Shown: in pieces, positions 2,447 through 32,250 of the stretch
Layout of the letters: each line of letters begins with the position of its first letter
Position numbering within the stretch: the first letter of the stretch is position 1
Sequence record: LR880803
Origin: Escherichia phage Barry
Length of the DNA stretch: 64,000 bases
Direction: 5' to 3' (one strand)
Translations under genes and position numbers: made by a program
The notes under the pieces: model-generated
The model's database searches: none
Seen by the model: the letters and a program-made list of their open reading frames with translations, nothing else
Told to the model about the DNA's origin: nothing

Positions 2447-3556
2447 ATGACTACTAAAACTAAAGCACAGATTGACGCAGAAATTTACAAACTGGTTAAA
2501 GAGGGTAAGCTGACTAAAACAGCTATTGCACAGAAATTTAACACCTCAACCCGTTCAGTCGGTCGTGCTGTAGAGCGTCATGAAGCAACCTTAAAAGGGA
2601 ATAAAAAGGCAACTTCTACACCAGCTACGAAGACTTTAAAGCAAGTTGCTAAGACCTTTAAAAAGAAATCTGACAAGCCAGTTAAAAAGGTTGTTAAAGA
2701 GGATGTACAGAAAGCTCCGGTAAATAAACTGCATGAAGCTATGCAGAATGGCAACCAGATTGAGTACATGATTACTGGTGACTCTGTTATCATGACTTTC
2801 GGTGCAGATTCTGAAATCGTTGAATCTACCCATCCGAACTACAAAGAAATCGTGATGGCTGTTGTATCCGGTGAGTATAAGAAAGCTTTCGAACTGATGA
2901 ACATTCGTAAGTCTATCGAAAACTTCACTCAGGGTGCTATCACCATCAAAGGTGACAAGTTATTCTACGGTGCTGTTGAGATGCGTTCTACTCTGGTTGA
3001 CCGTATTCTTCACATGATGAAGACTGGAGATAAGGGTTTTGAACGCCTTGTGATGTTCTTCGAAAAACTGATGGAAAACCCATCTAAAGATTCTGTAGAA
3101 CAACTTTGGGGATTCGTATCTCACCTTGATGTTGAAATTGATGAAGAAGGCTACATCATTGGTTGGAAGAAAGTCTCTACTCGTGAAGGCAAGCTGGTTG
3201 ACTCCCACACCTACAGAGTACCTAATGATTTGGGTAACATTGTAGAAATGCCACGTTGGATGGTTGATAATAACCGTAACGTGACTTGCTCTCAAGGTCT
3301 TCACGTTGGTGCTTGGGATTACGTTCGTTGCTTCTCAGGTGATACAATCCTGAAGGTTCGTGTCCATCCACGAGATGTTGTATCTGTTCCAACTGATTAC
3401 AACGATATGAAGATGCGTTCTTCTCGTTATGAAGTTGCAGCAATCGTTGATAATCAACGTAAAGTGCTGAAAGAATGGGATGGCAAGACTGAAGCTTTGC
3501 ATGTCATCGTTGGTACTGCTGGAGAACTTATCTCTCAACGTAAACGTGAAATCTAA
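2447..3556 (+). CDS. rIIB: rIIB-like protein
   Basis: 369-aa ORF directly after rIIA; C-terminal block KVRVHPRDVVSVPTDYNDMKMR and CSQGLHV resemble T4 rIIB as I recall it; SD GAGAG upstream. Confidence 0.75.
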   Translation: MTTKTKAQIDAEIYKLVKEGKLTKTAIAQKFNTSTRSVGRAVERHEATLKGNKKATSTPATKTLKQVAKTFKKKSDKPVKKVVKEDVQKAPVNKLHEAMQNGNQIEYMITGDSVIMTFGADSEIVESTHPNYKEIVMAVVSGEYKKAFELMNIRKSIENFTQGAITIKGDKLFYGAVEMRSTLVDRILHMMKTGDKGFERLVMFFEKLMENPSKDSVEQLWGFVSHLDVEIDEEGYIIGWKKVSTREGKLVDSHTYRVPNDLGNIVEMPRWMVDNNRNVTCSQGLHVGAWDYVRCFSGDTILKVRVHPRDVVSVPTDYNDMKMRSSRYEVAAIVDNQRKVLKEWDGKTEALHVIVGTAGELISQRKREI

Positions 3557-23288: not shown

Positions 23289-23369
23289 TTTTAAAAGGTG
23301 TTGACAGACTCTATAAAGTTGCTCTAAAGTCTGTCACATCAAACAACAAATGAGAGAAGAGAGTAAAAT

Positions 23370-24784
23370 ATGAGCGAATTATTTAAACATGCGCACCTTC
23401 ATGCAGGTCGAACTGAAAATGGTGCTGTAAACCATACTTCATCAATGTCTGCTCTAGTAAACTTTTACAAAGCTGCTGGTTCAAGCCGTAGCAATGTAGA
23501 AATCTTACCAGACCTGTTCTACAAAGCTTTGCGTGAGGATGTTGATGTTGCAGTTCGTATTTTACTGCATATGCGAGATGTACGAGAAGGTATGGGTGAG
23601 CGTAAAGCCTTCAGAACTGTTTTGCTTCAAGCAATTGAAGACAAAGTTTTAGAGCCTACACAGGTTCTTCGCATTATGGATAAGATTGCAGAACTTGGTC
23701 GTTTTGATGACTTCAAAATCTTCGTAGGTACTCGTTTCGAGACGGATGCCTTCAAACATTTAGAGGCAGCATTACTAGACCCTGCAACAGCAGGTTTGGC
23801 AGCTAAGTGGTTACCACGAGTCAAACCACGTCATAAGCAGTTTGTAAAACGTTTCTGCAAGTTTGCCAACTTGAGTGAGAAAGAGTACCGCACACTGTTA
23901 TCTGCACTGTCTGATACGGTTGAGCAAAAATCTCTGCTAATGAGTTTGGTAAGATTGACTACAGCAAGATTCCTTCACTCGCTGCTGCACGTTACCAAAA
24001 GCTCTTTAACCGCAAAGATGGAGAACGTTACAAAGCTTACATCGAATCACTCTCAAAGGGTGAGTCTAAGATTAACGCTGGTGCTGTTTATCCATACGAT
24101 GTGATTAAGTCTATCAAGCATGGTAATGCAGATGTTGCCAATGAGCAGTGGAAAGCACTACCAAACTGGATGGCAGAAGGTGAGAACATCTTGTGTATGA
24201 CTGATGTTTCAAGCTCAATGTCTTGGGTGAATCTTGGTTCAATCACTGCCCTTGATATTGGTGTATCACTTGCCTTGTATGTAGCAGAACGCAATACTGG
24301 TTGTTTTAAGAATGAGTTAATGGTTTACTCAACAAACCCTCACTTCATCGAACTGAGCGGTGATTTACGAAACCGTCATCGTCAGGTGATGCGTCATGTT
24401 GAATATGGCTCAACTAACTTACAAGCAGCTTTTGACCGTATTCTTGAGATAGGTAAAAGAAACAACTTGACTCAGAAAGATATGCCAAGTAAGCTTGTCA
24501 TCTTCTCCGATATGGAGTTCAATCAGGTTGATGGAGTTAACGGTCGTACAAACTTTGAAGCAATTCAGAGTAAGTACAAGAAAGCTGGATACGAAATGCC
24601 ACAACTGGTATTCTGGTACTTAGCAAACCGTAATGGTACTTGCGAAGTGTCTGTTAAGGATAACGGTGTAGCAATGGTATCTGGTTTCTCTCCAGCCACT
24701 TTAAAAGCTTTGCTTGGTGGTGAGAAGTTTGACCCAATCAGTGTAATGCTCAAAGCAGTAATGATTGACCGTTACATCTGGTAA
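23370..24784 (+). CDS. vWA-domain protein (MIDAS motif) read as two ORFs (23370..24104 and 24101..24784) because of a frameshift at an A5 run near 23926..23930
   Basis: downstream frame has DVSSS (DxSxS) and reads sensibly back to 23924; upstream ORF tail after ~23930 is low-complexity; one extra A would fuse them (...SDTVEQK-ISANEFGKIDYSK...). Confidence 0.5.
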
Positions 24785-24802
24785 AAAGTTTCAAAAAGGG
24801 TA

Positions 24803-24831
24803 TTGACAATGTGTTTGATACCCTTTAATAT
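24803..24831 (+). promoter_or_regulatory. strong sigma70-like promoter upstream of the tRNA island
   Basis: TTGACA - 17 bp - TAATAT. Confidence 0.55.
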
Positions 24832-24949
24832 GTTCTACATAGAAACGAAACGAGAGCTTTTCTAAGATACTGAAAAATATTTTAAAAAAGTTCTTGACAA
24901 TCACTAAAAAATAATGTTAAAGTGGTTACATAGAGTTTGAAAAGTTTAT

Positions 24950-25026
24950 CTCTGTTTAGCTCAGATTGGTAGAGCGTTCCGTTTGGGGCGGTAAGGCCGG
25001 AGGTTCAAGTCCTCCAACAGAGACCA
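24950..25026 (+). tRNA. tRNA, anticodon read as TGG (Pro)
   Basis: acceptor CTCTGTT/AACAGAG, T-arm GGAGG-TTCAAGT-CCTCC, CCA encoded. Confidence 0.6.
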
Positions 25027-25033
25027 AATTAAT

Positions 25034-25111
25034 GTTCCAGTAGACAAAATGGTATAGTCACCACTCTTTCAAAGTGGATATCTGAGGGTTCAAATCCCTT
25101 CTGGAACGCCA
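25034..25111 (+). tRNA. tRNA, anticodon TTC (Glu)
   Basis: acceptor GTTCCAG/CTGGAAC, anticodon stem CCACT/AGTGG loop CTTTCAA, CCA encoded. Confidence 0.65.
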
Positions 25112-25203
25112 GTTTTGACAGAAGACCAATTACAGCAAACTTAATCTTATTCATCTGAAGGTAAATCGGACAAAGAAGAGATTTGGTCTGGTCATTAAGA
25201 ATT

Positions 25204-25279
25204 GCGGGTATAGAGAAAGGGCGTCTCACATGTCTCATTAGCATGGTATCGGCAGGTTCGACTCCTGCACCCGCCTCCA
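25204..25279 (+). tRNA. tRNA-like, anticodon CAT (Met/Ile2 type); boundaries approximate
   Basis: T-arm GCAGG-TTCGACT-CCTGC, anticodon stem CATGT/GCATG loop CTCATTA; acceptor pairing imperfect. Confidence 0.45.
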
Positions 25280-25357
25280 ATTTTGCAGAAGACCGTATTC
25301 AGCAACAAAATACTTTTTTGCGGATAAAAGAAAAAACACGGTCTGGCAATGTATTAA

Positions 25358-25434
25358 GGTTAGGAAGCACATAAGGTATGTGCGGTCGCCTGTTAAGCGA
25401 ATGGCACAGGGTTCGAATCCCTGACTAACCGCCA
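25358..25434 (+). tRNA. tRNA, anticodon GTT (Asn)
   Basis: acceptor GGTTAGG/ACTAACC, T-arm CAGGG-TTCGAAT-CCCTG, CCA encoded. Confidence 0.6.
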
Positions 25435-25442
25435 AATTAAAT

Positions 25443-25530
25443 GTGTCGTTATCCCGTAGATGGTAGCGGTGGGGACTGTAAATCCCTTGTCATTGAGACT
25501 CGGTAGGTTCGACTCCTACACGGCACACCA
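25443..25530 (+). tRNA. class II tRNA (long variable arm), anticodon GTA (Tyr)
   Basis: 88 nt; acceptor GTGTCGT/ACGGCAC; T-arm GTAGG-TTCGACT-CCTAC; loop CTGTAAA. Confidence 0.65.
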
Positions 25531-25535
25531 ATAAA

Positions 25536-25612
25536 GGCTATGTAGTTTAACTGGAGAAAATACTCCCCTGTCACGGGAGATGATGTGAGTTCAAGTCTCA
25601 TCGTAGCCGCCA
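25536..25612 (+). tRNA. tRNA, anticodon GTC (Asp)
   Basis: acceptor GGCTATG/CGTAGCC, anticodon stem CTCCC/GGGAG loop CTGTCAC. Confidence 0.65.
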
Positions 25613-25634
25613 ATTTTGAGAGGGCTATTTAGCC

Positions 25635-25672
25635 CCTCCCTTAAAGAGTTCTTACGAGTATTCTTTAAGGGA
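25635..25672 (+). ncRNA. 12-bp perfect hairpin between tRNAs (possible processing signal or small RNA)
   Basis: CTCCCTTAAAGA-gttcttacgagtat-TCTTTAAGGGAG. Confidence 0.35.
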
Positions 25673-26042
25673 GCAGAAGACCAAATACAGCAAGAATGTA
25701 TGAAATTTCAAGCCAATTTAATTTTGAAAATTTAAAACTTGGTCTGGCTCAACAAATTTACAGAAGGCCGTTTACAGCAAAACTTAAACAATCTATTTCT
25801 CCGGTACAGAAAAGGCGAAGGTTCGATTCCTTCACTCGGCAGATGTCGAGTTGGTGTAATGGTAGCACTTAAGATGATAAACAACGGTCTGGTAATTACC
25901 TTTGTAGATAAGTTATTAAGCTTACTTGTGAGTATGCGACCACAAAGGGTGAATGGGTAAATTCTAGATTTAAACCCAAAAAAGGCACATCGCTACAGAC
26001 CTTAAGCAAGTCTGGGTAGCTTATCTACAAAGATAATTTAAT

Positions 26043-26118
26043 GGAAGTGTAGCAGAATGGTGATGCGGCAGACTTTTAATCTGACAGGCGATGGGTTCGA
26101 ATCCCTCCACTTCTACCA
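26043..26118 (+). tRNA. tRNA, anticodon TTT (Lys); weak T-stem
   Basis: acceptor GGAAGTG/CACTTCT, loop CTTTTAA, T-loop TTCGAAT, CCA encoded. Confidence 0.5.
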
Positions 26119-26122
26119 ATAT

Positions 26123-26199
26123 GGTTCAGTCGCAGATAAGGTAATGCAAGGGTCTCATAAGCCCTATGAATGTGGGTTCGATTCCCATCTGAACCTCCA
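26123..26199 (+). tRNA. tRNA, anticodon CAT (Met/fMet/Ile2 type)
   Basis: acceptor GGTTCAG/CTGAACC, loop CTCATAA, T-loop TTCGATT. Confidence 0.6.
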
Positions 26200-26200
26200 A

Positions 26201-26276
26201 GCTGGTATAGTTAAGAAGGTTATAACACTCCCCTGATAAGGGAACATCGGTGGTTCGATTCCACCTACCAGTACCA
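26201..26276 (+). tRNA. tRNA, anticodon GAT (Ile)
   Basis: acceptor GCTGGTA/TACCAGT, T-arm GGTGG-TTCGATT-CCACC, loop CTGATAA. Confidence 0.6.
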
Positions 26277-26290
26277 ATTTCAATAAAGTT

Positions 26291-26319
26291 GTTGACATTG
26301 AGATGTGACTACTTTATAG
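26291..26319 (+). promoter_or_regulatory. internal sigma70-like promoter in the tRNA island
   Basis: TTGACA - 17 bp - TATAGT. Confidence 0.5.
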
Positions 26320-26522
26320 TAACCTTAGTTTTCGTTGCGTAGCGTCTATTTTGCAAATTTAAAATAAATGCAAACGACAATGTTTTTCTGGCAGTAGCTT
26401 GATAGGCTAAACACCAGTGAGGTCTTCCAATCCCTCATCAAAGAATTTGGCGTACTCGCCCACGGTATGATTAATAAGGTGGGCATCTTTAAGGGCTTTC
26501 TAAGAGAGTCTTTAAAGATAAT

Positions 26523-26599
26523 GCACCCTTAGTTCAATTGGATAGAGCAACGGTCTTCTAAATCGTTAGTTACAGGTTCGAATCCTGTAGGGTGTACCA
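26523..26599 (+). tRNA. tRNA, anticodon TCT (Arg)
   Basis: acceptor GCACCCT/AGGGTGT, D-arm GTTCAATTGGATAGAGC, T-arm ACAGG-TTCGAAT-CCTGT. Confidence 0.65.
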
Positions 26600-26742
26600 A
26601 ATAGTTAGCAGATTACTTAGACGGCCTTAGCGGGTCTTCCTGTAGGGAGGTGGTCTGTATCTCATGTTTTCCAGAACATGTAAATAATCTGAGAAGAAGC
26701 TTGACAGTGTTGAGATAATACGGTAAGCTTCGAATTATAGTA

Positions 26743-26820
26743 TGGGACGATGTTAAGACTCTAAGGCATGAGCAACGGCCTCCAAAACCGTTTCAAAGGG
26801 GTTCAACTCCTCCGTCCCAT
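26743..26820 (+). tRNA. tRNA, anticodon CCA (Trp); CCA not encoded
   Basis: acceptor TGGGACG/CGTCCCA, loop CTCCAAA, T-loop TTCAACT. Confidence 0.55.
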
Positions 26821-26837
26821 GCTAAAGATTGTTTCGG

Positions 26838-26924
26838 AGAGAGTGGCGGTCAACGGAGACCAACCAGCCTTGAAAACTGGTGCTGCTGGAAACGGTACGG
26901 GTTCAACTCCTGCACTCTCTGCCA
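26838..26924 (+). tRNA. class II tRNA, anticodon TGA (Ser)
   Basis: 87 nt; acceptor AGAGAGT/ACTCTCT; loop CTTGAAA; long variable arm. Confidence 0.6.
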
Positions 26925-26948
26925 AAATAATTTTTAAGGTGGTGATTA

Positions 26949-27289
26949 TGAAGAAAGGTTCAGTAGGTGAAATTGCTACACAATTAGCTTTCCTCAAAAG
27001 AGGTTATGAAGTATATTCACCAGCTACAGATAATGCAAAGTATGACTTTCTAGTTCACAAAGATGGTTTGATTGAAACTGTTGAGGTAAAATCAACATCA
27101 GTCAAAAGAGGTGAACTTTGGAGAGTGCAACTGAAAAGAGTTCGTTCTAACAAGAATGAAAATAGAATAATGAATTTTGATAACTCTCAAGTTGATTACT
27201 TAGCTGTTTACATTGAACCACTTGATAAAGTCGTCATCTACAAAGCTAAAGATGTCAAGTCTAAGACTGAACTTAGCTTAAAGATTTAA
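26949..27289 (+). CDS. small PD-(D/E)xK-type nuclease-like protein embedded in the tRNA island (Hjc/resolvase-like motif order)
   Basis: ATG at 26949 behind strong SD AAGGTGGTGA; GEIATQLAFLKRGYEV ... YDFLV ... VEVKS matches the E...D...E-x-K arrangement; track ORF 26768..27289 upstream part overlaps tRNAs and is not coding. Confidence 0.45.
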
Positions 27290-27530
27290 AGCCAAGCTTC
27301 ATTCGGATGTCGCTTTGGTATCCCTCGTGTATTGTCGTACACTGTCAAAGCACCTAGTAGGTGTCACGGAGAAGAGATAATATCAAGCTCTCCAAAGGTT
27401 CTAGTCACCGGATTAAACAAGACTATGCAAAGACCTATTTAGGTCTTTTTAGAGGGCTTCTAAGGTTATTAGTCGCTTGTTGTGGAACCTTGTTGCTCAG
27501 GTTCTTAGAAGTTCTCTAAAAAGATTTAAT

Positions 27531-27607
27531 GCACCTATAGCCCAACTGGTAGAGGCAGCAGACTTAGAATCTGCTCAGTGTGAGTTCGAATCTCTCTAGG
27601 TGTACCA
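27531..27607 (+). tRNA. tRNA, anticodon read as TAG, short variable arm (identity uncertain)
   Basis: acceptor GCACCTA/TAGGTGT, anticodon stem GCAGA/TCTGC loop CTTAGAA, T-loop TTCGAAT. Confidence 0.5.
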
Positions 27608-27614
27608 AATTAAT

Positions 27615-27690
27615 GCAGGTGTAGCAAAATGGTTATGCGGCTGACTCTTAATCAGTAAGACGATGGGTTCAATTCCCTCCACCTGTACCA
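27615..27690 (+). tRNA. tRNA, anticodon read as CTT (Lys), paralog of 26043..26118
   Basis: acceptor GCAGGTG/CACCTGT, loop CTCTTAA. Confidence 0.5.
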
Positions 27691-27696
27691 AACAAT

Positions 27697-27772
27697 GGGG
27701 TCATAGTTTATATGGTTAAAATTCGAGTTTTGCAAACTTGGGAACTGAGTTCAATTCTCAGTGACTCCACCA
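27697..27772 (+). tRNA. tRNA, anticodon tentatively TGC (Ala)
   Basis: acceptor GGGGTCA/TGACTCC, T-arm CTGAG-TTCAATT-CTCAG. Confidence 0.5.
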
Positions 27773-27778
27773 ATTAGT

Positions 27779-27853
27779 GCATCCATAGTTTAAACGGGAA
27801 AATTACAGTCTTCCAAACTGAGGTTGAGGGTTCGATTCCCTCTGGATGCTCCA
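27779..27853 (+). tRNA. tRNA, anticodon TCC (Gly)
   Basis: acceptor GCATCCA/TGGATGC, T-arm GAGGG-TTCGATT-CCCTC, loop CTTCCAA. Confidence 0.6.
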
Positions 27854-27860
27854 AATTAAT

Positions 27861-27935
27861 GCTCCTATCGTATAATTGGTTATTACGGTTGCCTTGTAAG
27901 CAACTTATCAGGGTTCGAGTCCTTGTGGGAGCACC
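27861..27935 (+). tRNA. tRNA, anticodon TGT (Thr)
   Basis: acceptor GCTCCTA/TGGGAGC, anticodon stem GTTGC/GCAAC loop CTTGTAA. Confidence 0.65.
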
Positions 27936-27939
27936 AATT

Positions 27940-28028
27940 CAGAGGTCAAGTGAAAGACCGCTTTGAGTCAACTGAAGACCGTAACAAATTCCACGAAGTT
28001 GAGTTAGCGGCACAACTTCAGACCTCTT
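27940..28028 (+). ncRNA. structured inter-tRNA spacer (candidate small stable RNA or processing element)
   Basis: long-range complement CAGAGGTC ... GACCTCT enclosing inner hairpin GAAGTTG...CAACTTC. Confidence 0.3.
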
Positions 28029-28032
28029 TCAT

Positions 28033-28107
28033 ACTCGCTTAGTTTATATGGTAAAACATCACCCTTACAAGATGAAGAAAAAGGTTCAAGTCCTTTAGTG
28101 AGTACCA
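28033..28107 (+). tRNA. tRNA, anticodon TAC (Val)
   Basis: acceptor ACTCGCT/AGTGAGT, D-stem GTTT/AAAC, T-arm AAAGG-TTCAAGT-CCTTT, loop CTTACAA. Confidence 0.55.
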
Positions 28108-28108
28108 T

Positions 28109-28186
28109 GTTCCAGTATCCCAATTGGCAGAGGATGCAAGCTCAAACCTTGTATTAGTGACGGTTCGAATCCGTCTTGGAACACCA
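28109..28186 (+). tRNA. tRNA, anticodon read as CAA, short variable arm (identity uncertain)
   Basis: acceptor GTTCCAG/TTGGAAC, T-arm GACGG-TTCGAAT-CCGTC. Confidence 0.5.
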
Positions 28187-28191
28187 ATTTT

Positions 28192-28267
28192 GCAGGATTA
28201 GTTCAAATGGATAGAGCAACAGTCTACGAAGCTGTTAATAGGGGTTCGAATCCCTTATCCTGCGCCA
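28192..28267 (+). tRNA. tRNA, anticodon ACG (Arg)
   Basis: acceptor GCAGGAT/ATCCTGC, D-arm GTTCAAATGGATAGAGC, loop CTACGAA. Confidence 0.65.
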
Positions 28268-28286
28268 ATTTAAAGAGGCTATTTAG

Positions 28287-28844
28287 ATGAGATATTTGAA
28301 GTATGCTTCATGGATTTTCTTAGCTTTGTTAGAGCCATTTGCAGCAATCTTAGCAGTTATCTTAGCACCTTTTGTAGTTCCATTCTACAGTGAGAAGAAA
28401 GGACACTTACCTTTCGGGTTCAGATGGATGGAGACATATGACAACCCAATTGATGGTGATGAAGGTCACGTTAAAAGATGGGCTAATATTAGATGGATTG
28501 GTAAACTAGGTGTCTACATGCAAAGAGTCGGATGGCTCTGGAGAAACAAAGCTTATAACTTCTCTTACCATGTATTAGGAAGAGATGTAAGAGATGTTAC
28601 TAAGTGGAAAGGTAATATCAACGTAAGTTCTGACCCCGAAGATAATCAGACAGGTTATCTCCTAATGTGGAACAGTAATGCTTGGGGATTATTCGCTTTT
28701 ATCCCATCAATTAAAATCTTTGGTAAACAATTTTACTGGAGAATTTATATTGGATGGAAACTAAAAAGTGTTGTCCCAGAAGAAAGAGCATTCTCAAGGG
28801 AAAGAGTTATGTTGGCATTCTTTATTCATCCACTGAGAAAGTAA
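28287..28844 (+). CDS. hypothetical Trp-rich membrane protein embedded in the tRNA island
   Basis: 185 aa; SD AAAGAGG; N-terminal hydrophobic segment FLALLEPFAAILAVILAPFVVPF. Confidence 0.45.
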   Translation: MRYLKYASWIFLALLEPFAAILAVILAPFVVPFYSEKKGHLPFGFRWMETYDNPIDGDEGHVKRWANIRWIGKLGVYMQRVGWLWRNKAYNFSYHVLGRDVRDVTKWKGNINVSSDPEDNQTGYLLMWNSNAWGLFAFIPSIKIFGKQFYWRIYIGWKLKSVVPEERAFSRERVMLAFFIHPLRK

Positions 28845-28852
28845 AGATTTAA

Positions 28853-28928
28853 AGGGGATTAGTTTACAAGGTTAAAACCTCGGTCTTTGAAATCGAAGAA
28901 GTTGGTTCAATTCCAACATCCCCCGCCA
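28853..28928 (+). tRNA. tRNA, anticodon TTG (Gln); 1:72 mismatch
   Basis: T-arm GTTGG-TTCAATT-CCAAC, D-stem GTTT/AAAC, loop CTTTGAA. Confidence 0.55.
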
Positions 28929-28930
28929 AT

Positions 28931-29009
28931 GCTCCATTACTCCAATTGGCAGAGAGGCCAGACTTAAAATCTGTGTTATGTATCGGTTCGAATCCGATAT
29001 GGAGTACCA
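28931..29009 (+). tRNA. tRNA, anticodon read as TAA (identity uncertain)
   Basis: acceptor GCTCCAT/ATGGAGT, T-arm ATCGG-TTCGAAT-CCGAT, loop CTTAAAA. Confidence 0.5.
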
Positions 29010-29014
29010 AATTT

Positions 29015-29090
29015 AGCGGTATAGCATAACTGGCAATGCAGCAGCCTCTGAAGCTGTCCTATTAAGGTTCAAATCCTTATGCCGCTGCCA
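29015..29090 (+). tRNA. tRNA, anticodon CTG (Gln)
   Basis: acceptor AGCGGTA/TGCCGCT, D-stem GCAT/ATGC, loop CTCTGAA. Confidence 0.55.
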
Positions 29091-29121
29091 CTTCTAAGGA
29101 TTCTTGCGAGAGTCCTTAAAT

Positions 29122-29197
29122 GTGGCCTTATCATAAACGGTAATGACCCATGCTGTGAACATGGTCTATACGGGTTCAAATCCCGTAGGTCACCCCA
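29122..29197 (+). tRNA. tRNA, anticodon GTG (His)
   Basis: acceptor GTGGCCT/AGGTCAC, anticodon stem CCATG/CATGG loop CTGTGAA, T-arm ACGGG-TTCAAAT-CCCGT. Confidence 0.6.
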
Positions 29198-29203
29198 ATT
29201 TAT

Positions 29204-29279
29204 AGTCCAAGTAGCTTATATGGTTAAAGCGCGTGTCTGAAAAACATGAGAAGAGGGTTCAAATCCCACTGGACTACCA
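29204..29279 (+). tRNA. tRNA, anticodon GAA (Phe)
   Basis: D-stem GCTT/AAGC, loop CTGAAAA, T-loop TTCAAAT, CCA encoded; boundaries approximate. Confidence 0.55.
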
Positions 29280-29296
29280 ATTTCAAAGGTGCTTAA

Positions 29297-30030
29297 TGAA
29301 AGAGATGACAGAACAAGGTAAGGAGATTTTTAATCTCTTAAAAACTGGTAAAGGGTTCTCTAACCCGCTTATTACTGGTGCAGCAGTTCTCGGTGGAACC
29401 GTAGCTGCTTCTACATCACTTGTAAGCTCTATTAGTTCTGTAACAGACCCTACAATGAAGGAGAAACTTGTTGCTGCTGGACTTACAACAGTCCTTCTAA
29501 ACAGCTTTACAACAAGCCTTACAAGCACTACAGCAACTACTAAAACTCTGACAGACTACGGTCAAAAATCTATTGATGAGTTTTCATCACGTATGCAGGT
29601 AGCAAAGGGGTATTCCAATGTTATGGGTGCAGCAGGAGAACAAGTTGGTTGTACACCATTCAGTGGTATCATGGGTGTTGCTACAGAGTATGGTCAAAAA
29701 GCTATTGACATGATGAACAGTACACTAGATAGTGTTAATGGTGTGTTAAGTGACTTACAAGATGCTATTGATAAGGGTCTTGATACTGTTTCTGATTTAG
29801 CTAACCAAGCTGTCAGTAAGATTAATGAAGGTATTTCAAAGATTACAGCTTATGCAGATGAAGTTGTGCAGATGATTGAAGAAGAAGCTGCCCTTATTGC
29901 AGAGTACCTTAAAACGAATATCAATGGGTTCTTAGCAGGTATCTTACCAGACTGGTTTGACGATGCTTGTAAAACTGGTGTGATTGACACTATTGCAACA
30001 CCAGAAATGAAGAGCGCATTACAGAAATAA
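29297..30030 (+). CDS. hypothetical Ser/Thr/Ala-rich protein
   Basis: ATG at 29297 (MKEMTEQG...); track ORF start 29233 lies inside the preceding tRNA. Confidence 0.45.
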
Positions 30031-30031
30031 T

Positions 30032-30124
30032 GGAAGATTAACCCTAAAAGGTAAGGGAGCAGTTTGCTAAACTGCCAGTAGCTGAGAAATCGGTGTACCA
30101 GTTCAAGTCTGGTATCTTCCTCCA
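30032..30124 (+). tRNA. class II tRNA, anticodon GCT (Ser)
   Basis: 93 nt; acceptor GGAAGAT/ATCTTCC; anticodon stem GCAGT/ACTGC loop TTGCTAA; T-arm ACCAG-TTCAAGT-CTGGT. Confidence 0.65.
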
Positions 30125-30128
30125 ATTT

Positions 30129-30204
30129 GAATCCGTGACAGAAATGGATATGTGCCTGTCTGCAAAACAGGTTTATAAGGGTTCGAGTCCCTTCGGATTC
30201 TCCA
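30129..30204 (+). tRNA. tRNA, anticodon GCA (Cys)
   Basis: acceptor GAATCCG/CGGATTC, anticodon stem CCTGT/ACAGG loop CTGCAAA, T-arm AAGGG-TTCGAGT-CCCTT. Confidence 0.65.
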
Positions 30205-30241
30205 AGTTATTTTACTCTCTCTCAATTAAAATAATAATAAT

Positions 30242-30300
30242 GCCCTGCTATAAGTATTCTTCCTTTCGCTACCGAAGAGTATTTTTAGACAGGGCTTTTT
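30242..30300 (+). terminator. compound rho-independent terminator after the tRNA island
   Basis: outer stem GCCCTG...CAGGGC with inner hairpin, followed by TTTTT. Confidence 0.5.
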
Positions 30301-30367
30301 TACAGAGTTATACTTTATAAGAAGGCTTATACAGTATGTCTCTGACGTACATTGTGGTTTCTCCTTG

Positions 30368-30390
30368 ACGGTCTCTGTGCCGTCTTTTTT
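30368..30390 (+). terminator. rho-independent terminator
   Basis: GACGG-tctctgtg-CCGTC followed by TTTTTT. Confidence 0.55.
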
Positions 30391-30426
30391 AAGGAGAAAC
30401 ATGGTTAATTATTTGGAGAAAACATA

Positions 30427-30627
30427 ATGAGTGAGACCGTTTATAAAGAACTTTATGAAGCTAACAAAAAGCTAGAATTTATGCAGAACACTATCATGGC
30501 AATTGCAGATAGATTATCTGTAGCAACAGGTATTGATATCAAAGAAGCCTCTATGGATGCACTTCTTGATGCTGTTGATGCAAAGTTCGAAGTTAAGAAA
30601 GAAGAGACTGCTACAGACTCTGAATAA
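30427..30627 (+). CDS. hypothetical small acidic protein upstream of terminase
   Basis: 66-aa ORF. Confidence 0.3.
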   Translation: MSETVYKELYEANKKLEFMQNTIMAIADRLSVATGIDIKEASMDALLDAVDAKFEVKKEETATDSE

Positions 30628-30648
30628 TTCTATTTGCGGAGGTGCTTA

Positions 30649-32250
30649 ATGGACTTAAATGCTGTTAAGCAGAAGCGAGTGGAAGATGTTAGGAAAGTCC
30701 TAGCTGGAGAGTTGGGGCTTTCTGATGAAGTAAAAGAAATTATCAAATCATTCGGTAAAGACCCCTCTAAATTCCTTCCAACTCAAATTCTGACTTTATT
30801 AAGATACACACCAGACCAAGTTCGCCTTATCTTTAAATTGATGACTGATAAGAACTATGTAGCCCCTCAACCGGGTTCTCAAGAGGTCTTTTTAAACACT
30901 AATGCTGACTTGGTTCTTTATGGTGGTGCTGCTGGTGCTGGTAAAACTGCTGCATTGTTAATGGACTCTTTAAGATTTATTGAAGACCCTAACTATAATG
31001 CTGTATATTTCCGTCGAAATACAACACAGTTACAAGGTGGTTTATGGCCTGCTGCAAAGAAACTATTTGGTAAGTTTGGTGGGATTCCTCATGAGCAGAA
31101 AATGACTATCACATTCCCTTCTGGGGCGACTATCAAGTTTACCTATCTAGAACTTGAAAAGCACGCTGAAGGCCATCAGGGTATTGAATACTCAGCTATT
31201 TACTTTGACGAAGGTACACACTTCTCTGCTTCACAGATTTCATACCTACAAACCCGTCTACGTTCTGGTGCTGAAGGTGATTCATACATGAAGATTTCCA
31301 TGAACCCAGATAGAGACCACTTTATTTACGATTGGGTAGAACCATTCTTAGATGAAGAAGGTTACCCAGACCCTGAAAAGTGTGGTCGTATTCGTTGGTA
31401 TGTAATGAATGATGGTGTGATGGTTTCTGATTGGGAGAGAGACAAGATTCTTGAAATGTTCCCTCTTGAGATTCCTCAAACATACACCTTCATCTCTGGT
31501 ACGATTGATGATAACCCAATTCTTGACTTCTTAGAACCAAAGTATCGCGGTAAGCTTGAAAACAACACCCCTGTAAACGTTGCAAGACTTCGTTTCGGTA
31601 ACTGGAAGGCTCGTGCAGAAGGTTCAAACTACTGGCAAAGACAATGGTGTGAGATTGTTGATTCACTCCCAGAAGATATATTTGATGTTAGAGCATGGGA
31701 CTTAGCAGCAACTTTACCATCTGAGGTTAACCCTAATCCAGACTGGACAGCAGGTGTTAAGATGGGTAAATCTAAAAAAGACGGTTGCTATTATATCATT
31801 GATGTAGTAAGATTTAGAGATAGACCCTCTGGAGTCGAAACACAAATTAATTTGACTGCTGAAAGTGACGGTAAGCGAACTGGTATTTTTATCCCTCAAG
31901 ACCCAGGCGCTGCTGGTAAATCCTACGCAACATCCCTCATCAGGAAACTTGCTGAGAAAGGCTATCGTGCAAGAGCTAAACCAACAAATAAAGATAAAGT
32001 TACCCGATTTGCGGGGTTTTCTGCTGCTTCTGAAGCTGGACTTGTAAAAGTTTTGAGAGGTAGTTGGAACGAAGCTTATTTCCAAGAGCTTGAAGGCTTT
32101 TGTGGTGATGGCAAAACTAAAGATGACCAAGTGGATGCTACCAGTGATGCTTTCAACAGTCTTAACGAAGTTAAATTATTCAAGCCACCATCAATGGGTG
32201 CTCACACAGACTTAGTGAGGGGAAATCCATATGAGGGGCTTAGACGTTGA
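30649..32250 (+). CDS. terL: terminase large subunit
   Basis: Walker A LVLYGGAAGAGKTAALL, Walker B-like IYFDEGTHF; ATG at 30649 behind SD GGAGGTG; ~530 aa. Confidence 0.85.
   Translation: MDLNAVKQKRVEDVRKVLAGELGLSDEVKEIIKSFGKDPSKFLPTQILTLLRYTPDQVRLIFKLMTDKNYVAPQPGSQEVFLNTNADLVLYGGAAGAGKTAALLMDSLRFIEDPNYNAVYFRRNTTQLQGGLWPAAKKLFGKFGGIPHEQKMTITFPSGATIKFTYLELEKHAEGHQGIEYSAIYFDEGTHFSASQISYLQTRLRSGAEGDSYMKISMNPDRDHFIYDWVEPFLDEEGYPDPEKCGRIRWYVMNDGVMVSDWERDKILEMFPLEIPQTYTFISGTIDDNPILDFLEPKYRGKLENNTPVNVARLRFGNWKARAEGSNYWQRQWCEIVDSLPEDIFDVRAWDLAATLPSEVNPNPDWTAGVKMGKSKKDGCYYIIDVVRFRDRPSGVETQINLTAESDGKRTGIFIPQDPGAAGKSYATSLIRKLAEKGYRARAKPTNKDKVTRFAGFSAASEAGLVKVLRGSWNEAYFQELEGFCGDGKTKDDQVDATSDAFNSLNEVKLFKPPSMGAHTDLVRGNPYEGLRR

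Follow-up and report, generated by a model that had tools for sequence, protein, structure and literature searches.

Why should a phage carry the gene for a small nuclease in the midst of its tRNA genes? The question is raised by Escherichia phage Barry (sequence record LR880803), of which a stretch of 64,000 nucleotides, referred to here as the window, was analyzed. An open reading frame (ORF) of 113 codons sits there in an island of 26 tRNA genes, all on the same strand. An original prediction, made from the letters of the sequence, took the ORF product for a PD-(D/E)xK nuclease that could serve in homing, as a recombination resolvase, or as an RNA/DNA nuclease tied to tRNA biology. Our analysis indicates that the ORF product is probably a homing endonuclease of the I-Ssp6803I (PF11645) family that targets tRNA-Ser genes and whose own gene stands free, outside any intron. 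The positions of the gene and of its catalytic codons are as follows.

26936 to 26945, plus strand: Shine-Dalgarno sequence AAGGTGGTGA, 2 nt 5′ of the ATG, with its AGGTGG core 5 nt from the ATG
26948 to 27289, plus strand: free-standing nuclease ORF, PF11645 (I-Ssp6803I family), 113 codons plus stop
26969 to 26971, plus strand: codon of E8, conserved in 49 of 60 homologs
27044 to 27091, plus strand: codons of the catalytic core, D33 to K48, from the 60-homolog alignment
27044 to 27046, plus strand: codon of D33, D in 60 of 60 homologs
27083 to 27085, plus strand: codon of E46, with E in 34, S in 14, and Q in 12 of the 60 homologs
27089 to 27091, plus strand: codon of K48, K in 60 of 60 homologs

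The nuclease and its gene

Profile, fold, and catalytic residues bear out the assignment of the protein to the PD-(D/E)xK nucleases. In Pfam, it matches PF11645 (PDDEXK_5) over residues 2–109, scoring 63.3 bits where the cut-off is 26.1 (E = 3.1e-17), and its sole solved relative by sequence is I-Ssp6803I (Protein Data Bank (PDB) entry 2OST; phmmer E = 3.9e-6). Earlier work has described PF11645 as the family of I-Ssp6803I and has also met it as the nuclease part of certain defense systems. The "homing endonuclease" model of PADLOC also matches the protein (E = 1.6e-8), PHROGs assigns it to phrog_5018, of unknown function, and a search of NCBIfam gave no meaningful match. No match to GIY-YIG was seen in Pfam, PHROGs, or PADLOC. 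An AlphaFold2 model built from 60 homologs has a predicted local distance difference test (pLDDT) score of 94 and a predicted template modeling (pTM) score of 0.85; when it was compared with the PDB by Foldseek, the four chains of 2OST came out on top, with a template modeling (TM) score of 0.85 for 2OST_A, a root-mean-square deviation of 2.0 Å, and E = 9.1e-9. Checked by profile and by structure, as the original prediction had suggested, the protein is thus assigned the nuclease fold of PF11645 and I-Ssp6803I.

The motifs singled out in that prediction lie in the order claimed, with GEIATQLAFLKRGYEV at residues 7–22, YDFLV at 32–36, and VEVKS at 45–49. Given the Pfam score and the selection and residue conservation described below, this goes far beyond coincidence. 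D33, E46, and K48 align with the D and the QVK of I-Ssp6803I, which has Q at position 46. The expectation that orthologs would keep the acidic and lysine residues held fully for D33 and K48, which are invariant, and less strictly for position 46, where E, S, and Q all occur, and for E8; D83 is conserved in 59/60 homologs. Nine other copies of the ORF are all 342 nt long and intact, and their ratios of nonsynonymous to synonymous substitution rates (dN/dS) relative to the copy in the window lie between 0.06 and 0.18. Because D33 and K48 are invariant, the copies intact, and dN/dS in this range, the ORF is, on sequence evidence, a functional gene under strong purifying selection.

The comparison with Hjc-type resolvases that had been drawn for this protein holds for the fold superfamily but is wrong for the family. 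If the protein were a Holliday junction resolvase of this type, acting in phage recombination or packaging, one could account for the Hjc structures among the weaker Foldseek matches (probability ~1.0, a superfamily-level likeness of fold), for the label "Holliday junction resolvase" on homologs from Streptomyces and Arthrobacter phages in some SEA-PHAGES records, and for a match to the phrog_843 resolvase profile with E = 0.11. However, the families that follow I-Ssp6803I in the Foldseek ranking (EcoRV, the SPARDA nuclease domain, and Hjc) have E-values of at least 3e-3 and TM scores of 0.3–0.6, and Hjc itself reaches 0.45–0.6 with E ~1e-2, compared with 0.85 and 9e-9 for I-Ssp6803I. As the Hjc match is far weaker than that to I-Ssp6803I, and no Pfam Hjc match was found, the resolvase option is not supported. 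A resolvase would moreover be a core gene, but ~97% of the sister phages are without the ORF, and its place in tRNA clusters, once within a tRNA gene (see below), would go unexplained. We consider this reading highly improbable.

The coordinates first given for the ORF, 26949–27289, need a small correction. The ORF exists, but its ATG is at 26948, one base earlier: the frame from 26949 to 27289 translates with 11 stop codons, whereas that from 26948 yields the predicted 113 amino acids and a stop. The strong Shine-Dalgarno sequence that had been noted is found at 26936–26945, and its position supports the 113-amino acid start over that of a 173-amino acid ORF running through the tRNA, as does the N-terminal sequence MKxGSxGE, which aligns with the N-termini of homologs. 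Between 26400 and 27700 the window matches Escherichia phage vB_Eco_Tribble (OX016465.1, Felixounavirus) without a difference (100% identity); the GenBank record of that phage has no coding sequence (CDS) annotated at the locus; in other phage records, the ORF is a "hypothetical protein," sometimes in the 173-amino acid version that runs through the tRNA. A scan for promoters and terminators found nothing above background. The ORF does lie between tRNA genes, as predicted, with the end of tRNA-Ser(UGA) 23 nt upstream and the start of tRNA-Leu(UAG) 241 nt downstream.

The tRNA-Ser upstream of this intergenic ORF is complete and has an encoded CCA. A search with Rfam found no group I intron (Intron_gpI) in 24000–31000 even at E ≤ 1, the only matches there being tRNAs, and none was found around the homologs, the bacterial loci being judged at the Rfam gathering score. 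Because the ORF is intergenic and no group I intron is present, it is free-standing, unlike an intron-encoded homing endonuclease of the I-Ssp6803I type.

A linked tRNA-Ser allele in a mosaic island

The population data turn on the following three features.

26838 to 26924, plus strand: tRNA-Ser(UGA), allele A, with encoded CCA; in ORF-bearing genomes only, 65% identical to allele B
26823 to 27318, no strand: conversion-like replacement tract relative to phage fjerdesal, comprising spacer, allele A, ORF, and ~30 nt downstream
27281 to 27289, plus strand: right junction, where the last two codons and stop, AAGATTTAA, equal the empty site, GCCTAATAAGATTTAA..., a 9-nt microhomology

Just 7 of the 274 phage records that share the tRNA region cover ≥80% of the query, and tblastn found the protein in the same 7 (Tribble, CHB7, EC106, LF110P1, SPJ41, SWJM-02, and NJ12). 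The share of related phages without the ORF is ~97%. The spacer measures 6–9 nt in ORF-less phages compared with 350–366 nt in ORF-bearing ones. Because other inserts made a region-wide alignment unreadable, the flanks of 7 ORF-bearing and 9 ORF-less phages were aligned separately. All 7 ORF-bearing phages have allele A of tRNA-Ser(UGA), and all 9 ORF-less phages have allele B. Among 50,697 phage records, allele A (at least 96.6% identity) occurs in those 7 ORF-bearing records and in no other; allele B (at least 90% identity) occurs in ~246. The arms of the anticodon stem are ACTGT/ACAGT in allele B and CCAGC/ACTGG in allele A, such that 4 of the 5 base pairs differ. Two metagenomic contigs represent a further lineage (P0003) at the same site, in which the ORF has 85% amino acid identity and a proportion of synonymous differences (pS) of 0.53, and the tRNA-Ser is 100% identical to allele A.

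The constant company of allele and ORF, and the greater conservation of the tRNA than of the ORF in the P0003 lineage, could also be read as the mark of a passive passenger, an inactive remnant hitch-hiking with a laterally acquired tRNA-Ser gene. A passenger would not, however, be expected to show the low dN/dS, full-length copies, retained catalytic residues, and strong Shine-Dalgarno sequence described above, and we give this explanation very little credence. Distribution, fold scores, and selection contradict both the passenger and the resolvase.

At the end of contig L037 (CYGL01000008.1), the full nuclease gene precedes a second, inverted copy of its 3′ portion and of tRNA-Ser allele A, and the duplication gives rise to a chimeric protein of 89 amino acids (P0013). 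P0013 was considered as a truncated or rearranged copy and set aside, the inverted duplication at the contig end being probably an assembly artifact.

The boundaries of the exchange are best seen in fjerdesal, an ORF-less phage near-isogenic with Tribble. One patch of ~490 nt is replaced between the two; the flanks are 99.5–99.9% identical (5 mismatches in 931 nt upstream and 1 in 869 nt downstream), and the tract itself contains 25 mismatches and 356 unaligned bases. In the multi-phage alignment, divergence begins near 26830, after a conserved tRNA-like element, and stops at the stop codon of the ORF. Relatives lacking the ORF had been proposed as a test for a clean junction between the flanking tRNAs. 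The ORF is indeed absent from ~97% of them, but the whole adjacent tRNA-Ser is replaced along with it, and the event is no simple insertion. In CHB7, which belongs to the genus Suspvirus, the cassette is 99–100% identical compared with 88–95% for the flanks. The cassette is also found on varied flanking tRNA-Arg and tRNA-Leu alleles, each of which occurs in ORF-less phages as well. Together with profile, fold, and catalytic residues, this population distribution supports the homing-type nuclease that the original prediction had listed among its options.

Other parts of the island vary as well. tRNA-Arg(UCU) at 26523–26599 and tRNA-Leu(UAG) at 27531–27607 have sharply different alleles in Felixounaviruses (as compared with L002–L016), those of tRNA-Leu being GAGGCAGCAGAC... 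and AACCTACCATCC.... Because the tRNA-Arg and tRNA-Leu alleles assort in all combinations, the island, judged from its sequence, is a mosaic of allelic cassettes. The LNA6 genome carries a paralog of the nuclease gene, 71% identical (L005 1501–1842, also L038), elsewhere in the island: it follows tRNA-Arg(UCU) by 15 nt and has taken the place of ~40 nt of spacer. CHB7 (L011) has an extra insert of ~110 nt, located ~110 nt after tRNA-Arg, whose opening bases, GCCAGTTTAA, recur at the left junction of the nuclease insertion in LNA6; it may be a remnant of an LNA6-type element. In pSJ21 (L004 1299–1751), a different ORF of 150 amino acids stands directly before tRNA-Leu(UAG). With its CxxC...HNH-like motif and a Pfam HNH match of 20.4 bits, just under the cut-off, it is probably another mobile nuclease in the island. 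As read from these alignments, the pattern is typical of a recombination hot spot that harbors mobile nuclease genes.

Relatives at other tRNA genes and further features of the island

If the nuclease is tied to tRNA-Ser, its relatives elsewhere could be expected to keep similar company. Contexts were surveyed at 25 loci representing 23 lineages (<60% identity), drawn from GenBank phages, IMG/VR, and public assemblies; the IMG/VR scans gave 8 distinct loci, and the contexts of the homologs of PJNS034, Jada, River4/Pylo, EalM-132, and Emajogi were left out. The homologs come from the Vibrio T5-like phage pVp-1, from Streptomyces, Arthrobacter, Pseudomonas, Enterococcus, and Bacillus phages, from a cyanophage, and from a Vequintavirinae coliphage. 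At 24 of the 25 loci there are tRNA genes in the flanks, without exception on the strand of the ORF, and the nearest is usually within ~50 nt or overlaps the 3′ end of the ORF. tRNA-Ser, mostly with anticodon UGA, is an immediate neighbor within 60 nt in 12/23 lineages; when the ORF was placed by permutation in a randomly chosen gap among the tRNAs of its own locus, 0.028% of trials reached this count (p = 2.8e-4). Bacillus phage BCP78 has a further tRNA-Ser(GCU) neighbor 13 nt off. The tRNA-Ser genes beside homologs in other phages are 41–58% identical to allele A, which gives no sign of a common traveling tRNA.

In bacteria, tRNA-Ser stands beside the gene at 10 of 11 loci. In three Nostoc metagenome-assembled genomes (MAGs), the gene follows tRNA-Ser(UGA) by 91 nt within long tRNA arrays. 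tRNA-Ser lies 40–220 nt downstream at four of five Anaerolineae-class MAG loci, in one Actinomycetes MAG, and in one Acidimicrobiales MAG, and the order in Paenibacillus is serS–ORF–tRNA-Ser(UGA). Two distant homologs are without tRNA context: in the small podophages KP32 (gene 22; L064) and phiIBB-PAA2 (orf37A; L065), the gene comes directly after, or overlaps the end of, the DNA polymerase gene, which in phiIBB-PAA2 is annotated there as "part II." DNA polymerase genes are common sites of homing endonucleases.

A closer relation to tRNA-Ser is seen on three contigs (L033, L034, and L035) that have one homolog (P0011) in common. In L035, the P0011 ORF (1313–1815) is followed by an intact tRNA-Ser(GCU) (1816–1903). 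In L034, a second PF11645 ORF (2869–3336; 80 bits) with a 19-nt leader splits the tRNA-Ser(GCU) exactly between T33 and G34, both halves of which are 100% identical to L035. This insert is almost all ORF, and no ribozyme was found in it. The P0011 ORF, for its part, is flanked by the two halves of a class-II tRNA, the anticodon loop of which starts CTTG, and ARAGORN calls a cloverleaf at this locus once ~410 nt are deleted. In L033, tRNA-Ser(GCU) has been lost through a deletion of ~90 nt between two class-II tRNAs. The position split in L034 is that at which the intron of I-Ssp6803I interrupts tRNA-fMet (PMC13011429).

These associations bring into play the possibility that the nuclease acts on RNA, as a tRNA-Ser-specific ribonuclease or processing enzyme to which the linked allele is resistant, the two forming a poison/antidote or host-takeover pair. 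The linkage to tRNA-Ser across phages and five bacterial phyla, including the serS–ORF–tRNA-Ser arrangement, would suit such a pair, as would the perfect linkage of a private tRNA-Ser allele to the ORF and the placing of the CHB7 ortholog by InterPro in the "tRNA endonuclease-like domain superfamily." Yet no tRNA-splicing (EndA-like) endonuclease occurs among the Pfam matches or among the 50 Foldseek PDB matches listed, the distant members have DNA polymerase genes rather than tRNAs for neighbors, and the gene in L034 is physically inside a tRNA gene, which is a DNA-level event. The only close relative in structure and sequence is a DNA endonuclease solved on DNA (PMC3384342). An RNA target is improbable on this balance.

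In tRNA arrays that also bear the nuclease gene, ARAGORN assigns the anticodon CUA (amber suppressor/"Pyl") to a tRNA at L041 758–831 and 4-nt anticodons to those at L048 235–317 (ccta) and L055 347–424 (gcat).

Three further features of the window were noted. The conserved tRNA-like element upstream of the replacement tract (26744–26818, plus strand) was not called by ARAGORN, and its best Rfam match is tRNA-Sec with 23 bits and E = 0.5. Its acceptor stem would be formed by ATGGGAC/GTCCCAT, and its anticodon loop, CCTCCAAAA, is 9 nt long and includes CCA. In CHB7, its anticodon stem is altered on both sides (AACGG/CCGTT to GTAAG/CTTAC), supporting the structure. Trp is the only amino acid without a called tRNA in the island, and the element may be a tRNA-Trp of unusual form. 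A non-coding stretch of 240 nt (27290–27530, plus strand) separates the ORF from tRNA-Leu. Several alternative, hairpin-like versions of its first ~40 nt exist, and which of them a phage has does not depend on the ORF; from ~27330 the stretch is ~95% conserved in all relatives, with or without the ORF. It matches no Rfam family, and a CDS of 49 amino acids is annotated there in one record. Finally, TRIB_026 (23369–24784, plus strand) is a 471-amino acid DUF2828/DUF7788 protein in relatives. The annotated span translates with many stops, and in the window it is split into overlapping frames at 23370–24104 and 24101–24784; the split looks like the result of a 1-nt frameshift, which may be real or due to a sequencing error.

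A proposed homing mechanism and its known counterparts

How might a homing endonuclease have produced this arrangement? The ORF would be cotranscribed with the tRNA operon, its own Shine-Dalgarno sequence serving for translation, and the protein, by analogy with the I-Ssp6803I tetramer, would be a homo-oligomer. When an ORF-less phage coinfects the cell, the enzyme could then recognize a long, pseudo-palindromic site in the DNA of its tRNA-Ser(UGA), the common allele B, and make a Mg2+-dependent double-strand break there. Recombinational repair from the ORF-bearing genome would copy the resistant allele A and the nuclease gene together, a case of intronless homing with coconversion, for which T4 SegB is the precedent. 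A private tRNA-Ser allele with altered arms of the anticodon stem is the form that immunity would be expected to take. As to the site of cleavage, we tentatively suggest the anticodon stem-loop of tRNA-Ser, a possible rather than a probable target. The anticodon arm is preferred because it is an inverted repeat as DNA, because 4/5 of its stem pairs differ between the alleles, and because relatives are inserted in its loop.

A bolder version of this scheme, which we think rather unlikely, is that the nuclease and its own tRNA-Ser form a coadapted two-gene cassette. The nuclease would attack ordinary tRNA-Ser genes, or possibly transcripts, at the anticodon stem-loop, while the divergent tRNA-Ser linked to it would serve as a resistant replacement, and the cassette would spread by replacing resident tRNA-Ser genes in phages and in bacterial chromosomes across phyla. 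If this were true, we would be dealing with a drive that replaces tRNA genes and that differs from the classical homing of introns or inteins.

The same site-specific DNA endonuclease activity might instead have been retained for the benefit of the phage, either by excluding the markers of competitors in mixed infections or by promoting the amplification or turnover of tRNA genes against tRNA-targeting host defenses. There is precedent in SegB: broadly associated with tRNAs, it causes tRNA genes in its clusters to be amplified, by which Septu is overcome (PMC13096335). A benefit would also fit the 10 copies, all intact with dN/dS ~0.1 and with no decayed copy seen, and an island that is a hot spot of variable inserts and alternative tRNA alleles. 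A generally useful gene would not, however, be expected in <3% of related phages, and there is no tandem amplification around the ORF in the window. We regard this alternative as decidedly unlikely.

Several points weigh against a homing endonuclease directed at tRNA-Ser genes. At 113 amino acids, the protein is short compared with the 150 of I-Ssp6803I and is without the C-terminal part of that enzyme. The ORF always accompanies allele A, in a sample of just 7 isolates and 2 metagenomic contigs. Sharp tract ends are expected from any homologous recombination, and the two alleles, at 65% identity, are too divergent to recombine internally. The genome of LNA6 has the common tRNA-Ser allele B beside its 71% identical paralog; the LNA6 enzyme therefore cannot cut allele B, and the tRNA-Arg allele neighboring that paralog is not private. 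Uniformly intact, selected copies and the placement by tRNA-Ser in bacteria, once by serS, would fit a domesticated or cellular role as well. The steps of the mechanism proposed above are themselves drawn solely from homology and population patterns.

Should homing be confirmed, this would be the second mechanistically independent nuclease, after the GIY-YIG enzyme SegB, that shapes phage tRNA repertoires. It would explain the sharply different alleles of phage tRNA genes and would provide a source of compact 113-amino acid enzymes with long recognition sites. Tribble and fjerdesal, near-isogenic Escherichia coli phages that are one patch apart, make an easy test system. Taken with its relatives, the locus points to a branch of PF11645 that is free-standing and of considerable size, lives in the tRNA clusters of phages and at tRNA loci of bacteria, and prefers tRNA-Ser. 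In the literature, of which our coverage was incomplete, we found no account of free-standing PF11645 genes in phage tRNA clusters, of a tRNA-Ser bias, or of a private tRNA allele, which is no proof of novelty.

To our knowledge, essentially one PD-(D/E)xK homing endonuclease, I-Ssp6803I, has been characterized. The ORF product resembles it in Pfam family, in fold (TM 0.85), in the D...(E/Q)xK core, and in its association with tRNA genes. I-Ssp6803I is encoded by a Synechocystis group I intron at position 33/34 of tRNA-fMet (PMC1995217; PMC13011429) and acts as a tetramer that reads a pseudo-palindromic site of ~23 bp (PMC3384342). Whereas that enzyme is intron-borne, 150 amino acids long, associated with tRNA-fMet, and has Q in its motif, the ORF is phage-borne and intergenic, 23 nt after an intact tRNA-Ser, encodes 113 amino acids, and has the canonical E in ExK. 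Archaeal Hjc, a near structural neighbor of I-Ssp6803I (PMC3384342), shares with the ORF product the PD-(D/E)xK core fold and a similar size. Its distribution is that of a housekeeping gene, in contrast to the sporadic and mobile ORF, for which the structural match to Hjc is weak and a profile match is absent.

The nearest parallel in genomic setting is T4 SegB, which the original prediction correctly cited as a homing endonuclease of another family within a tRNA cluster (GIY-YIG; PMC2330249). Like the ORF, segB is a free-standing gene in a phage tRNA cluster that is absent from close relatives and has flanking tRNA genes that are coinherited (PMC2330249). In crosses, SegB secures near-100% inheritance of its own gene and of neighboring tRNA genes, and its target lies in tRNA gene sequence, where it recognizes the TpsiC motif (PMC2330249); its association with tRNAs extends across many phages (PMC13096335). 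The two differ in that GIY-YIG is unrelated in fold and mechanism to the PD-(D/E)xK core of the ORF product, and in that the association of SegB is without isotype preference, whereas the clade of the ORF is biased to tRNA-Ser.

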